A stretch of 63,381 nt of DNA from Patescibacteria group bacterium (GTDB lineage Bacteria > Patescibacteriota > UBA1384 > JBAYJO01), in assembly GCA_041665085.1 (NCBI GenBank), contig JBAYJO010000005.1:1-63381 (forward strand), read 5' to 3'. The notes under the pieces are model-generated. The model searched no databases and was not told the DNA's origin. It saw nothing but the letters and a program-made list of their open reading frames with translations. Shown here piece by piece: positions 12,198 to 16,320 of this stretch. A program made the translations under genes and the position numbers. Position 1 is the stretch's first letter. Each line of letters begins with the position of its first letter.

Positions 12198-12938
12198 GAA
12201 CAAGTTGTAGTTATAAAACTTGGCTATATGCTGGAACATCTCGTTTAGGTCTTTGGTAGGTTATATTTGATAAATATACCTAAAAATCCAAAGAATAGAG
12301 ACAATCAGCAGGAAAGACTCAATAAAAGGAGGTAAATGAGTAGTAATCAACTCATGATTCCAGACCACATAGGGTGGTATATTAGTGGATTTTGTGATGG
12401 CGAAGGTAGTTTTAATGTTTCGCTTCGCAGGAAAACTGATTATAAAATAGGATGGCAAGTGGTGTTAAGTTTTAATGTATCTCAAAGAGATATTACAATG
12501 CTTGCACTTATAAAACGCTATCTGAAATGTGGGATCATAAAGAAAAGACAGGATGGATTATATTCTTATGATGTAACTAATCCAAATGCAATAACAAATA
12601 CAATCATTCCGTTTTTCGAAAAGTTTCGCTTTTTTTCTGCTTCAAAGAAGTATAATTTTAGACTTTTTGAGCAGATAACTAAGCTTGTGGCTGACAAAAA
12701 ACATCTTTCGCCGGAAGGATTTCAGGAAATAATGATTTTAAGAGAGAAATTGAATCCCGGGAGAGGTAGAACAAGAAAGTATAATATTGCAGATGTCTTA
12801 ATAAATTGAGTATCCTCAGAGACTACACGCCAAGACCCGATAATTTATCGGGTATGATATAGTCCGACCTCTATGGAGACATAGAGAGCATGATAGAAAT
12901 ATTTATGCCCTTGATTGATTATCAAGGCAACAAATGTG
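12198..12938 (+). mobile_element. Group I intron A at the E. coli-equivalent site after U1917 (H69 loop)
   Basis: The 5' exon ends ..gtaactat and the 3' exon resumes aactgttctatggt. The internal guide GTAGTT (12207-12212) pairs with exon AACTAT through a G.U. Core elements are ggctatatgctggaa, acaatcagcaggaaag and gatatagtccgacc. The terminal nucleotide is G at 12938. Confidence 0.8.
12336..12809 (+). CDS. LAGLIDADG homing endonuclease (single-motif, I-CreI-size) encoded in intron A
   Basis: 157 aa with the motif YISGFCDGEGSFNV and an SD (aaaggagg) upstream. It lies entirely inside intron A. Confidence 0.85.
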   Translation: MSSNQLMIPDHIGWYISGFCDGEGSFNVSLRRKTDYKIGWQVVLSFNVSQRDITMLALIKRYLKCGIIKKRQDGLYSYDVTNPNAITNTIIPFFEKFRFFSASKKYNFRLFEQITKLVADKKHLSPEGFQEIMILREKLNPGRGRTRKYNIADVLIN

Positions 12939-12952
12939 AACTGTTCTATGGT

Positions 12953-13251
12953 AGGAAAGCTGCCTTAGTGAGGTAGTCAAACCTCTGCTCGAACTTTCTG
13001 TGCCAGGAAAGATGTAGAGTAAAAATTCGACTATATGCTGGAAACTCTCTAGAATTCCAACGGGAAACCGGTTGGGCTGTGGAGACAATCAGCAGGGAAG
13101 TCCGCCTAGGTGGATCCCTCAACGACTATACGTCGAATGCCTATAAAAAATTCTGAAAATGATAATAGGTAAAGATATAGTCTGATCTGCATGGCGATAT
13201 GCAGAGTTTATTTTGGGAACAAATAAACCATCGAAAGATGTAACAAAATTA
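12953..13251 (+). mobile_element. ORF-less group I intron B at the site after U1931 (boundaries +/-2 nt)
   Basis: The 5' exon ends ..ctatggt. The guide GCCTTAG (about 12960-12966) pairs with it. Core elements are cgactatatgctggaa, acaatcagcagggaagtcc, cctcaacgactatacg and agatatagtctg. The 3' exon resumes agcgaaattcc. Confidence 0.7.
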
Positions 13252-13271
13252 AGCGAAATTCCTTGTCGGGT

Positions 13272-13973
13272 AAATAACGGAATTTGCCCGAGTAGTGCCG
13301 TGAGGTGCTATTAGTACACTGGCTAATAACGGGGAAACCCCTTTGGGGCAATCCCGTGGGAAGTCGGTCGCCATTTGGCGACTTGACCCCGTAACGACTG
13401 ACTCGAAAGATGAGATTCGATAATATCGAATAATACGCCAGCTCTTACTGAAAAAAGTGTGCTATGAAGTTCTAGAAAGGAGAATGTGGATATACATTCT
13501 TATATGACTGGTTTAACTGAAGGTGAAGGTTGCTTCTGTATTTCCTTTACTCAACGCAAAAAGTTGAATACTGGAATTGAAGTTAGACCTAGTTTTTCAA
13601 TCAGTCAGAATGAAAAGAATCTAGAATTGTTAAAAAGAGTTCGACAATGTTTTGACTGTGGTGGAATACGCTACTCAAGTCAAGATAGGAATTACAAATT
13701 CGAAGTGAGAAGTATTGATGATTTGATAAAAATTATCATTCCTCATTTTGAAAAATATCCTTTGATTGGAGCAAAAGCAGTGGATTTTGAAAAATTTGCT
13801 CAAATTTGCTGGATGATGAGATCAAATCTTCATCGCAACAAAGAAGGATTAATCAAAATAATTGATTTGGCTTATCAAATCAATTATGGAAAAAGAAAAT
13901 ATTCTAAAGAAGAACTTCTAAGGCATATGGTAAGATGAAAAGATAGTCTAAAGCATTGGCAACAATGTAAATG
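13272..13973 (+). mobile_element. Group I intron C at the site after U1951
   Basis: The 5' exon ends ..cttgtcgggt and the guide is GCCCGA (about 13286). Core elements are tgaccccgtaacgactgactcgaaag and aagatagtc. The terminal G is at 13973 and the 3' exon resumes aagttccgaccc. Confidence 0.8.
13486..13938 (+). CDS. LAGLIDADG homing endonuclease (single-motif) encoded in intron C
   Basis: 150 aa with the motif YMTGLTEGEGCFCISF and an SD (aaaggag) upstream. It uses a GTG start. Confidence 0.85.
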   Translation: MDIHSYMTGLTEGEGCFCISFTQRKKLNTGIEVRPSFSISQNEKNLELLKRVRQCFDCGGIRYSSQDRNYKFEVRSIDDLIKIIIPHFEKYPLIGAKAVDFEKFAQICWMMRSNLHRNKEGLIKIIDLAYQINYGKRKYSKEELLRHMVR

Positions 13974-14249
13974 AAGTTCCGACCCGCACGAATGGCATAA
14001 CGGTCTGGAAACTGTCTCAACAAGGGGCTCGGTGAAATTACAATGCCGGTAAAGATGCCGGCTACCCGCAGCAAGACGAGAAGACCCCGTGGAGCTTTAC
14101 TACAATCTGATATTGGGTTTTAAAATAACATGTGTAGGCTAGGTGGGAGTTTAGACGAAAGGTGAAATACCACCCTTGTTATTTTAGGACCCTAACACTC
14201 AATGCGAGTGGACAGTGTCTGGTGGGTAGTTTGACTGGGGCGGTCGCCT

Positions 14250-15212
14250 TAATATTAGCTTTCTTCGTTAAGCTATAGGGGCGTCTTGGCTATATGCTGG
14301 AATACCCGGTGTATGGTATAATACTCATAGAACATTAGTTCTAAAGTAAAAATTTATACCTGCGGTATAACCTATTTGGTATATACCACCGGACAATCAG
14401 CAGGGAAGTCCGCAAAAGCGGACCCCTCAACGACTATACGCCAAGCTTTGTATCAAATATAAAAGCAAATTGTCCCAATTGATACAGGGAAGATATAGTC
14501 TGAACTACATGGCGACATGTAGATCTTTGATCAATTATTACAAGATCAAAGAATTCAAGAAAAATAATTCTATGTATAGTAAAAAAATTGAAACATACAA
14601 GCAAAAACTTAAATTAACTTCTCAACAACGAGAGATATTAGTTGGTTTGTTACTTGGTGATGGTCATCTTGAAACGCAAAACAACGGCTTAACCTATCGA
14701 TTGAAAATAGAACATGGTGCTATACAAAAGGATTATGTTGATTGGCTTTATGAAATCTATAAGGATTGGGTATTAACTCCTCCACAGATAAAACAAAAGA
14801 AAACTGGTGAAATCATAACAGAAAATGTTTGGTTCAATACAGTTAGTCATATTGCAATGCGCTATTATGGCAAGCAGTTTTATCAGAAAGGAAAAAAAAT
14901 ATTACCTAAGTATATTAGTAGATTATTAAAACCATTGACCCTTGCGATTTGGTTTATGGATGACGGCTCATTAAAGTCGAAAGACCATCGAGCTTTAATT
15001 CTAAACACACAAGGATTTATCATCAAAGAGATTGAAATGTTGCAGAAAGGGCTAAAAGAAAAATATTCTATTGAAGCCCAACAGAGAAATCAAAAAGATG
15101 GTATCCAGCTTTTGATGGTTGGAGAATCGGCAAAAGAGTTTGCGCGAATTATTTCGCCATATTTATTGCCACAATTCAACTACAAACTTGGAAAATTGAA
15201 TTAACAAAATTG
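14250..15212 (+). mobile_element. Group I intron D just 3' of the P-loop (about E. coli position 2262)
   Basis: The 5' exon ends ..ggggcggtcgcct and the guide is GGGCG (about 14275). Core elements are ggctatatgctggaa, acaatcagcagggaagtcc, cctcaacgactatacg and agatatagtctg. The terminal G is at 15212 and the 3' exon resumes cctaaaatgtaacggagg. Confidence 0.8.
14572..15204 (+). CDS. Double-motif LAGLIDADG homing endonuclease encoded in intron D
   Basis: Motifs LLLGDGHLE and WFMDDGSLK. The start is taken at the first ATG after the ribozyme P7/P9 segment; the track start at 14470 would run through core RNA. Confidence 0.8.
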   Translation: MYSKKIETYKQKLKLTSQQREILVGLLLGDGHLETQNNGLTYRLKIEHGAIQKDYVDWLYEIYKDWVLTPPQIKQKKTGEIITENVWFNTVSHIAMRYYGKQFYQKGKKILPKYISRLLKPLTLAIWFMDDGSLKSKDHRALILNTQGFIIKEIEMLQKGLKEKYSIEAQQRNQKDGIQLLMVGESAKEFARIISPYLLPQFNYKLGKLN

Positions 15213-15450
15213 CCTAAAATGTAACGGAGGCGTTCAAAGGTCAGCTAACTACGTATGGAAATCGTAGTGATAGTGCAAACGCATAAGCTGGCTTGACTGC
15301 AAGACCTACAAGTCGAGCAGGTGCGAAAGCAGGAGTTAGTGAACCTGTGCCACTGAATGATGGGGGCACAGATCAACGGATAAAAGTTACCCCGGGGATA
15401 ACAGGCTTATAGCGCCCAATAGTCCATATAGACGGCGCTGTTTGGCACCT

Positions 15451-16320
15451 TAACACATTGGGGTGCTGCAGAAGTAATTCTGCACCAACAATTTGGCTTA
15501 TAACGGTGAACTCCGACTGCTAGTTTATCCACAAGACCGTTCGTATTATGTTCGGTATAATATAAGTGATATAAATTAGTAAAGGACAATACCGTGGGAA
15601 GTCTATCGTCAACTCAACACGCAATCTTAGTTGGAAGTATGTTAGGAGATGGAACACTTCGACGACAAGATAATCGATTGAACGCATTGTTTGAAGTAAA
15701 TCATTCATATGCTTTTAAAGATTATGTCGATTGGAAGTGTGAACAGATGAAAGAATATGTAATAACCTCTCCTAAATCAAGAAAAGGTAAAGGAATGCGT
15801 GTTGCTTATCGTTTTACGACTCGAAGTTTGCCAATTTTTACAGACTATTATAAATGGTTCTATAAAAATGGGAGAAAACAAATTCCATTAAATCTTGAAC
15901 TTGATCCGCAAATTCTTGCGGTATGGTTCATGGATGATGGAAGCAAGAGTCGTAGTGCTTACTATCTTAATACCCAACAGTTTTCTCTCTGTGAACAAAA
16001 GATTCTGCAGATGAAATTAGAGAAAGACATGGGAATTAAGTCTACTCTTAATCGTGATAAAAAATATTTGCGGTTAAGAATTAGCACAGAAAGTGCAAAA
16101 TATATGACTTTAATTGTTGAAAAATATATTTTACCTTGTTTTCGATATAAGTTGACATATGACCCCGTAACGACTGACCCGAAAGGGAAGATTCTGACAT
16201 TAGGTCAGGATAACACGCCAACCCCTATTACAAAAAACTCAATGATATGGTTTTAAAAACCTAAATCAGAGAATAGGGTGAAGATATAGTCTGCACCATA
16301 CGAAATTATGGATTCATGTA
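15451..16320 (+). mobile_element. Group I intron E in the peptidyl-transferase centre (after U2500)
   Basis: The 5' exon ends ..tttggcacct and the guide is GGGTGC (about 15462). Core elements are tgaccccgtaacgactgacccgaaag and aagatatagtctgc. The 3' exon resumes cgatgtcggctcg. Confidence 0.75.
15594..16256 (+). CDS. Double-motif LAGLIDADG homing endonuclease encoded in intron E
   Basis: 220 aa with motifs GSMLGDGTL and WFMDDGSKS and a GTG start. The C-terminal roughly 30 codons overlap conserved ribozyme core sequence. Confidence 0.8.
   Translation: MGSLSSTQHAILVGSMLGDGTLRRQDNRLNALFEVNHSYAFKDYVDWKCEQMKEYVITSPKSRKGKGMRVAYRFTTRSLPIFTDYYKWFYKNGRKQIPLNLELDPQILAVWFMDDGSKSRSAYYLNTQQFSLCEQKILQMKLEKDMGIKSTLNRDKKYLRLRISTESAKYMTLIVEKYILPCFRYKLTYDPVTTDPKGKILTLGQDNTPTPITKNSMIWF

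Follow-up and report, generated by a model that had tools for sequence, protein, structure and literature searches.

Five predicted mobile group I introns interrupting the 23S rRNA gene of an uncultured Patescibacteria bacterium

A 23S rRNA gene interrupted at five sites

The window analyzed here is the whole of contig JBAYJO010000005.1 (63,381 nucleotides [nt]) of assembly GCA_041665085.1, assigned to a Patescibacteria group bacterium, and all coordinates refer to it. It contains a bacterial ribosomal RNA (rRNA) operon in which the large-subunit (LSU) rRNA gene is split in two by its match to Rfam model RF02541 (Table 1). We joined the predicted exons (9700-12197, 12939-12952, 13252-13271, 13974-14249, 15213-15450, and 16321-16760) and aligned them to Escherichia coli 23S rRNA (L001:702-3604; L numbers of this kind are our labels for compared loci). 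Removal of five inserts, here called introns A to E and totaling 3,575 nt, left a 23S sequence collinear with that of E. coli and exact at all five sites, with exon ends at E. coli U1917, U1931, U1951, U2262, and U2500. An original prediction, made from the letters alone, had proposed five group I introns at U1917, U1931, U1951, about 2262, and U2500 that together add about 3.6 kb; the alignment agrees with it and fixes the fourth site at U2262, and the group I assignment is borne out by this collinearity together with the guides, core strings, and RF00028 matches described below. To the reading that these positions in the 23S gene of the uncultured candidate phyla radiation (CPR) bacterium are occupied by five group I introns, all of them mobile, we give a probability of about 0.88.

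With slashes marking junctions, the conserved blocks restored at 1917, 1931, and 1951 are GTAACTAT/AACTGTTCTATGGT/AGCGAAATTCCTTGTCGGGT/AAGTTCCGAC, and those at the further junctions are GGTCGCCT/CCTAAAATGTAACGGAGG and TTTGGCACCT/CGATGTCGGCTC. The corresponding intron-less site strings are GTAACTAT/AACTGTTC, CTATGGT/AGCGAAAT, and GTCGGGT/AAGTTCC for 1917, 1931, and 1951 and GGTCGCCT/CCTAAAAT and GGCACCT/CGATGTC for 2262 and 2500. The introns have a G+C content of 34-41%. Boundaries are unambiguous for introns A, D, and E; intron C can be shifted by one A, which is probably why its site is called 1952 in a survey of CPR insertions (PMC11270868), and an AG repeat allows the borders of intron B to slide by 1-2 nt. 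The 14-nt exon 2 is identical in locus L004, where it also lies between L1917 and L1931 introns. Helix 69 (H69; 12184-12197 with 12939-12946) reads AGCAG...CUGUU instead of the GGCCG...CGGUC of E. coli, the helix being kept by compensatory changes, and this variant is likewise found in L004.

The arrangement was recovered in other assemblies as well. An ENA contig (L002) corresponds to window positions 2336-22809 with 2 mismatches over 20.5 kb, none of them inside introns, and a Logan contig from a different run (L003) corresponds to 11975-14001, covering introns A to C, with 0 mismatches over 2,027 nt (assemblies containing the contig: ERZ27249449 and SRR6484324).

Table 1 Features of the rRNA operon and of the predicted introns (window coordinates; guide sequences are written as RNA)
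Feature	Positions	Strand	Details
Exon 1	9764-12197	+	E. coli ~15-1917; ends in H69 5' strand GCAGCAGUAACUAU; Rfam RF02541, 1337-1344 bits
Intron A	12198-12938	+	741 nt; L1917; last base G; guide GUAGUU (12207-12212) pairs exon AACUAU
Intron A core	P 12224, Q 12301, R 12814, S 12856		P8 hairpin 12834-12852; P9 hairpin ~12868-12886
Intron A endonuclease	12336-12809	+	157 aa; single motif GFCDGEGSF; LAGLIDADG_1 (PF00961), 83.6 bits, E 2e-23
Exon 2	12939-12952	+	14 nt, AACUGUUCUAUGGU; E. coli 1918-1931
Intron B	12953-13251	+	299 nt; L1931; last base A; no open reading frame; guide GCCUUAG (12962-12968) pairs exon CUAUGGU
Intron B core	P 13031, Q 13085, R 13117, S 13174		P9 ~13187-13204
Exon 3	13252-13271	+	20 nt, AGCGAAAUUCCUUGUCGGGU; E. 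coli 1932-1951
Intron C	13272-13973	+	702 nt; L1951; last base G; guide GCCCGA (13286-13291) pairs exon UCGGGU
Intron C core	R/P7.1 string 13384-13409, S 13942
Intron C endonuclease	13486-13938	+	150 aa (GTG) or 144 aa (ATG 13504); single motif GLTEGEGCF; LAGLIDADG_1, 99 bits, E 3e-28
Exon 4	13974-14249	+	E. coli 1952-2262; ends GGGGCGGUCGCCU
Intron D	14250-15212	+	963 nt; L2262; last base G; guide GGGCG (14279-14283) pairs exon CGCCU
Intron D core	P 14290, Q 14393, R 14425, S 14492		P9 ~14505-14522
Intron D endonuclease	14572-15204	+	210 aa (ATG); motifs LLLGDGHL and WFMDDGSL; LAGLIDADG_2 (PF03161), 154 bits, E 5e-45
Exon 5	15213-15450	+	E. coli 2263-2500; ends UUUGGCACCU
Intron E	15451-16320	+	870 nt; L2500, in peptidyl-transferase ring; last base A; guide GGGUGC (15461-15466) pairs exon GCACCU
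Intron E core	R/P7.1 16160-16185, S 16283		P9 16296-16311
Intron E endonuclease	15594-16256	+	220 aa (GTG); motifs SMLGDGTL and WFMDDGSK; LAGLIDADG_2, 137 bits, E 8e-40
Exon 6	16321-16695	+	E. coli 2501 to ~2890; starts CGAUGUCGGCUC
23S rRNA, two Rfam pieces	9764-12262/12275 and 14041-16695	+
5' insert in 23S	9910-10032		123 nt; z-score -4.5
5' insert in 23S	10146-10483		338 nt; z-score -7.2
5' insert in 23S	11405-11544		140 nt; z-score -6.2
16S rRNA	1376-2984		upstream of 23S; Rfam
tRNA-Ile	3954
tRNA-Ala	5387-5462
Protein genes between tRNA-Ala and 23S	5588-9314
5S rRNA	16850-16965		downstream of 23S

Guides, ribozyme cores, and endonuclease genes

For each insert the original prediction had listed a guide with a G.U at the junction, a P7-type element, and shared core strings, had sorted the introns into an A/B/D and a C/E subfamily, and had counted four LAGLIDADG open reading frames (ORFs). 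All of these are present, the P7-type elements and every quoted motif within 2 nt of where they had been placed. All five 5' exons end in U, which is paired with the G of a guide 10-30 nt into the insert (P1). In addition, a P10 helix pairs sequence beside the guide with the 3' exon: in intron B, GCU located 5' of the guide pairs with AGC (3 bp), and in intron E, CAUUG (15456-15460), adjoining the guide, pairs with CGAUG (5 bp). The guide and P10 partners of neighboring introns occupy nonoverlapping parts of the short exons. At L2500 the guide is conserved in at least 50 relatives of intron E, and P10 is conserved there too.

The strings CTATATGCTGGAA, ACAATCAGCAGG, and CCTCA..GACTA.ACG each occur three times in the window, only in introns A, B, and D, and no minus-strand copy of any of the three was found. 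Introns C and E hold the only two copies in the window of the 26-mer TGACCCCGTAACGACTGAC.CGAAAG, and the longer core strings are found nowhere else in it on either strand. What the introns share in this way are the core elements P, Q, R, and S, long known from group I introns. The A/B/D versions read CUAUAUGCUGGAA (P), ACAAUCAGCAGG (Q), CCUCAnnGACUAnACG (R), and (A)GAUAUAGUC (S); an S element, GATA(TA)GTC, is found in all five introns (Table 1). The two sequence subfamilies correspond to two structural types, since A, B, and D have no extension of P7 and C and E carry P7.1 and P7.2 hairpins between P7 and P3'.

We assessed covariation over P7.1, P7.2, P8, and P9 for the E type and over P8 and P9 for the A/B/D type. 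In an alignment of 33 E-type 3' cores, P7 is invariant (GACU/AGUC), P7.1 is a 3-bp stem with a GAAA loop, and compensatory double changes occur at 18 of the 26 predicted pairs. Across 21 A/B/D-type 3' cores, a set that combines those of the window with cores of related introns at L1917, L1931, and L2262, P7 is again invariant and double changes were seen at 12 of 18 pairs. For the 33-sequence alignment, RNAalifold also paired the CGU of a conserved CCGUAAC (J6/7; columns 2-4, window 16166-16168) with the three bases that span the 3' junction, one of the intron and two of the exon (columns 233-235, window 16320-16322), placing U opposite A or G (UA in 17 sequences, UG in 15); this pairing is probably an artefact of invariant columns.

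The four ORFs are all intact and match Pfam LAGLIDADG families over the full models (E 2e-23 to 5e-45), and their motifs retain the acidic residue needed for catalysis. That of intron A has an AGGAGG Shine-Dalgarno sequence 6 nt upstream, and that of intron C is also called as a gene in L002 and L003. For intron D, the ORF delimited mechanically from TTG 14470 has 244 aa, and the gene call in L002 has 210 aa. The reading frame lies in the P6 loop in intron A, in the P8 loop in intron C, and 3' of P9 in intron D; in intron E it extends from P6 through P7, P7.1, P7.2, and P3' into the 5' strand of P8, the overlap comprising its last ~100 nt. Searches of PDB matched the intron A protein to I-SmaMI and halves of I-OnuI-family enzymes (E 1e-45) and the intron C protein to I-PanMI, I-AabMI, and I-OnuI-family halves (E 4e-39). 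Each of these two proteins aligns to either half of the monomeric I-SmaMI, I-OnuI, and I-PanMI and also to homodimeric rRNA-intron enzymes, and presumably they act as homodimers. The intron D protein matches I-SceI over the whole enzyme (E 2e-29), and the intron E protein matches it at full length (E 1e-9); both are double-motif, I-SceI-like proteins and are predicted to be monomers.

Relatives of these introns were found in other 23S genes. A metagenome scan with the intron E protein identified 507 stretches encoding relatives, and among the best 80 loci, which were examined (46-66% identity), almost all lie at L2500 of 23S genes. The original prediction had proposed comparison with intron-less 23S genes, and sites 1917, 1931, 1951, 2262, and 2593 are indeed contiguous exon in some related genes and occupied by introns in others. 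Inserts are present at 1931, 1951, 2500, 2593, and 2657 in L008; at 1917, 2500, 2604, and ~2640, plus short ones, in L057; at 1917 and 1931, together with two 3' introns, in L004; and at L2262, with lengths of 830-896 nt, in L012, L015, and L026. Intron A is closest to the L1917 intron of L004 (80% core identity), and intron B is closest to the L1931 intron of the same locus. Because same-site introns of other organisms are closer than those within the gene, the introns appear to follow their sites, as homing predicts. Recent duplication within the gene was rejected as their source, since A, B, and D resemble one another less than they do same-site introns elsewhere. The L1931 intron of L008 has the same 5' end as intron B, is 745 nt long, which is enough for an ORF, and ends in G; intron B is best read as a putative ORF-less stage of the usual cycle of gain and loss.

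A homologue of the intron A enzyme with 67% identity is encoded within the L1917 intron of L004/L005, and a scan of reference genomes with this enzyme returned only these two loci, both on the same contig. This contig, a multi-intron 23S/5S sequence, is filed in two metagenome-assembled genomes (MAGs), one labeled Planctomycetia and the other Pseudomonadales; the contig almost certainly comes from a CPR-like organism and was misbinned in both cases.

Missing terminal guanosine and alternative explanations

In the mechanism that we propose, each intron would fold into a ribozyme within the pre-23S rRNA, free guanosine would cut its 5' end, and exon ligation would then remove it, with three excisions inside 35 nt rebuilding H69-H71 from the 14-nt and 20-nt exons. 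Each endonuclease would cut the intron-less version of its own site in another genome, where repair would copy the intron in (homing).

Several points weigh against five mobile group I introns in a CPR bacterium. We infer splicing, ligation, and endonuclease activity from sequence. The predicted host, a member of the Patescibacteria/CPR, is assigned by a single marker, the glycyl-tRNA synthetase (GlyRS) of the window: all named relatives among its best 120 matches are Patescibacteria/CPR (Peregrinibacteria, Berkelbacteria, Jacksonbacteria, and 'Patescibacteria group'), at 51-56% identity. P1 of intron B contains one internal U-U mismatch. The terminal guanosine (omega-G) is present in introns A, C, and D, but introns B and E end in A, and no compensating change in the guanosine-binding pair of P7 was found in the A-ending introns of the window or of the L2500 set. 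Finally, recognition by Rfam group I models, which the original prediction had named as a check, was partial. At a gathering score of 50 bits for RF00028, introns B (89.2 bits) and D (58.8 bits) lie above the threshold; introns A (40.8 bits, E 7e-8 to 2e-8) and E (30.6 bits, E 8e-5) fall short of it while still giving significant matches, each aligned over the 3' core only; and intron C is marginal by itself (19.3 bits, E 0.04-0.19), with its 5' core aligned and its S element severed by the ORF.

The low scores of introns A, C, and E arise because the ORF splits the core and the model is unable to bridge it; half of each core was aligned. An ORF-less L1951 relative (L040:1706-1919) scores 52.6 bits, above the threshold, and the P, Q/P6, and R strings of intron C recur in related introns at L1951. 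The group I identity proposed for intron C is based on its homology to intron E and to ORF-less L1951 introns that pass RF00028. As for P1 of intron B (12946-12968), E. coli and L008 have an exon, CUAAGGU, to which the guide GCCUUAG is matched, the exon of the window is CUAUGGU, and L004, which has the same exon as the window, has the matching guide GCCAUAG; the mismatch suggests that the intron came from a host carrying CUAAGGU or that the exon has drifted.

A terminal G is normally needed for the second splicing step. The A end of intron E is unambiguous, since its guide sets the U.G pair at U2500, P10 pairs the first five bases of the 3' exon, and this exon must start at C2501 to leave the ring intact. 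We considered G16318 as the omega position of intron E and rejected it, as it would put UA into the peptidyl-transferase ring or alter C2499 and U2500; in several L2500 relatives, moreover, the 3-6 nt next to the junction contain no G. A +2 shift of intron B, so that it follows G1933 and ends at G13253, was rejected as well, because this would lose the U.G junction and break the guide pairing, and because the homologous 305-nt L1931 intron of L019 (L019:718-1022) ends unambiguously in A. A compensating change in the guanosine-binding pair of P7 of the A-ending introns was also rejected, as none is present in the window or in the L2500 set. Nor is the terminal A an error, given that it is identical across three assemblies and recurs in 28 of 61 L2500 relatives and, at L1931, in L019 and L011.

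Terminal bases other than G are confined to two of the sites compared. Among 61 nonredundant L2500 introns of the intron E family, the last base is A in 28, G in 32, and T in a single case, and the A- and G-ending members have the same guide, P10 arrangement, and P7. Close cores can differ in the last base (for example, L049 versus L084), so the change seems to have arisen more than once. At L1931, introns end in A in the window, L011, and L019, in T in L026 and L050, and in G in L004, L008, L070, and L077. At the other sites, all 35 of the 35 nonredundant introns end in G (7 at L1917, 6 at L1951, 9 at L2262, and 13 at L2593), and the nine at L2262 all finish AACAnnnTG. The L1931 intron of L019 has C-G where the others have G-C at what is presumably the guanosine-binding pair of P7 (R reads GACACUAAUACG there in place of GACUAUACG, and S reads GAUAGAGUG in place of GAUAUAGUC).

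The strongest alternative, which we consider unlikely, is that introns B and E are splicing-impaired relics and that mature rRNA arises in some other manner, for example by hydrolysis at the splice sites, leaving a 23S that is in pieces yet assembled, with the help of a host factor, or through a slow, leaky second step that throttles the production of ribosomes. In model introns, exon ligation is blocked or misdirected when another base replaces the terminal G, and B and E combine an A at the omega position with a P7 pair that remains G-C; the A-ending cores nevertheless keep their helices by compensatory changes across diverged hosts, which argues for selection on ribozyme function, and a conserved P10 marks the same 3' site in A- and G-ending introns. 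A relic would also fit the absence of an ORF and the P1 mismatch in intron B and the inverted P7 pair of its L019 relative, but both sites lie in invariant rRNA (the H71 flank and the peptidyl-transferase ring), and a cell should not survive if the rRNA were broken there or kept the insert; one rRNA operon is also the usual number in CPR genomes (PMC11270868). There is also a precedent: a Coxiella 23S intron is said to lack 'the canonical omega G' and is called self-splicing in the title of the 2007 paper describing it (cited in PMC3428280), so a terminal A does not exclude introns B and E from group I.

We therefore favor functional introns at both sites: with one operon as the usual complement, and with all five sites in invariant functional rRNA (H69, H71, the P-loop flank, and the peptidyl-transferase ring), every intron would have to be removed precisely from what is probably the only ribosomal operon of the cell. 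Introns B and E would finish the second step with a 3'-terminal A, the 3' site presumably being set by P9 together with P10, which has 5 bp in E and 3 bp in B, and the terminal A probably slows splicing, as reported for the Coxiella intron without omega-G. More tentatively, and with the odds against it, the CPR L2500 and L1931 introns may form lineages that have repeatedly lost the 3'-terminal guanosine, a possibility raised by the L2500 counts, by the non-G ends of roughly half of a small number of L1931 introns, by the G at the end of all 35 introns from the four other sites, and by the standard, covarying cores and unaltered guanosine-binding pair of the A-ending introns. Literature searches on L2500 introns and on a terminal A at the omega position returned nothing useful. 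If this were true and splicing were good, these would be natural ribozymes that choose their 3' splice site without omega-G; if splicing were slow, they might be a built-in brake on ribosome production in slow-growing symbionts, as proposed for Coxiella. Either way, such losses would bear on how strictly group I introns need omega-G and on whether ribosome biogenesis in the CPR is slowed by the intron load.

It is highly improbable that the five inserts are instead intervening sequences (IVSs) or expansion segments, excised by RNase III without ligation or retained. Three AT-rich hairpin inserts do lie further 5' in the same gene, and CPR 23S genes are known for such insertions (PMC11270868), but the five inserts have group I cores, U.G guides, Rfam matches, and LAGLIDADG genes and lie within universally conserved single strands, not at helix tips. 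An IVS is a long hairpin at a helix tip without a ribozyme core; the three 5' inserts resemble this form, and the five introns do not.

Equally improbable is an assembly chimera that combines introns of different populations, or an organellar sequence: rRNA genes are often misassembled and misbinned, as the filing of L004/L005 illustrates, and multi-intron 23S genes (rrl) are typical of green-algal chloroplasts (PMC2997540), but two other assemblies from different samples match the window with 0-2 mismatches, other long metagenome contigs have at least 5 inserts in 23S (L008 and L057), and the flanking genes, which encode ClpP, guanylate-kinase-like, and mechanosensitive-channel-like proteins, penicillin-binding proteins, a Mur ligase, RecJ, Fpg, and GlyRS, are bacterial, which identifies the window as part of a bacterial chromosome. 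We rejected a chloroplast or mitochondrial origin on the evidence of these flanking genes and of the Patescibacteria relatives of GlyRS, and a chimera on that of the two independent matching assemblies. For annotation, five group I introns would mean that the mature 23S rRNA is ~3.6 kb shorter than the gene and that the four ORFs encode homing endonucleases and not host proteins; the locus would then also be a source of four candidate rare-cutting enzymes with known target sites in 23S.

Comparison with known introns and other features of the window

Brown et al. (2015) were reportedly the first to note insertions in rRNA genes of the CPR. According to a later survey (Tsurumaki et al. 2024, J Bacteriol, PMC11270868), 82% of CPR 23S genes have insertions, and a single gene can hold as many as 16; group I introns, which tend to lie toward the 3' end of 23S, were recognized in 45% of the insertions, and LAGLIDADG_1 genes were found at 1917, 1931, 1952, 2593, 2604, and 2657, with one enzyme shown to cut its own site (PMC11270868). 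Multi-intron 23S genes with LAGLIDADG genes are thus already catalogued for the CPR, and the present gene is a further example. It resembles those in host group, in the clustering of introns in the 3' half, in having LAGLIDADG_1 genes at 1917 and 1951 (their 1952), in the existence of ORF-less and ORF-containing forms per site (the form at 1931 here being ORF-less), and in short non-intron inserts at known IVS sites. That study stresses single-domain enzymes, whereas those of introns D and E are double-motif and I-SceI-like. The paper neither describes the present gene or organism nor mentions the 3'-terminal nucleotide; its sites 23IS9-11, which its text gives without coordinates, may include 2262 and 2500.

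Outside the CPR, introns at L1917, L1931, L1951, and L2593 are known from Synechococcus, Thermotoga, Simkania, and Coxiella (PMC1995217; PMC4990558). The original prediction had named L1917 and L1951 as the sites used in Coxiella, correctly so, as the introns there are designated Cbu_L1917 and Cbu_L1951 (PMC4990558). Coxiella likewise has these two introns around a tiny exon, one of them with a LAGLIDADG gene (157 aa, in the L1951 intron; Table 1 of PMC1995217). Its two introns enclose a 34-nt exon, whereas here three introns cut this stretch into 14 and 20 nt and two more follow downstream, and the introns ending in a base other than G are here those at L1931 and L2500. The introns of Synechococcus sp. 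C9/S. lividus, Thermotoga, and Simkania (Haugen et al. 2007, PMC1995217) also occupy L1917 and L1931 and encode single-motif LAGLIDADG proteins, with the same 14-nt exon length in C9. As in the window, ORFs there enter the ribozyme core, there is a second type with P7.1/P7.2, and some L1917 and L1931 members have no P2. In contrast to the window, no more than three introns were found per gene, none was found at 2262 or 2500 in bacteria, and every intron has an ORF (PMC1995217).

The rrl gene of the Floydiella terrestris chloroplast has eight group I introns, including ones at 1931, 2449, and 2500 (PMC2997540), and shares with the present gene both insertion sites and irregular gain and loss. 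Unlike the window, it is organellar, its introns are 321-449 nt long bar one of 1725 nt, and few introns of the mobile type are present in that chloroplast genome; moreover, its 2500 intron is of class IB, whereas intron E has the P7.1/P7.2 typical of class IA. The enzymes of introns D and E align at full length with I-SceI, which belongs to the omega intron of the yeast mitochondrial 21S rRNA, and both systems consist of LSU rRNA group I introns near the peptidyl-transferase center. They differ in that sequence identity is low, the insertion sites (2262 and 2500) and the host are different, and those of the window are predicted enzymes.

The three inserts in the 5' part of the 23S gene (Table 1) are extra with respect to both the bacterial model and E. 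coli. They were placed by the cmscan alignment, as the MAFFT alignment of the 5' 500 nt of 23S to E. coli was unreliable. All three are AT-rich and internally repetitive and form long imperfect hairpins, and the 140-nt insert follows approximately E. coli position 1167, the helix 45 IVS site. No group I features were found in any of the three, which look like intervening sequences or expansion segments.

The operon itself is stretched (2985-9763). About 1 kb separates the 16S gene from tRNA-Ile and 1.4 kb separates tRNA-Ile from tRNA-Ala, with ORFs without a family match in both gaps, and the 4.3 kb between tRNA-Ala and 23S hold five protein genes, four of them on the opposite strand. An 83-aa ORF (5145-5396) that ends 10 nt into tRNA-Ala consists of a GIY-YIG nuclease catalytic domain alone (Pfam E 1e-19) and may be a free-standing homing endonuclease or the decayed remnant of one. 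At 1,609 nt, the 16S gene has ~76 extra bases compared with the 1,533-position model, and an Rfam search of this gene for group I and group II introns gave no match. Elsewhere in the window, a 1,597-aa ORF (56743-61536) has as its sole family match a weak Sortilin/Vps10-type repeat (E 6e-11) and may encode a large surface protein.

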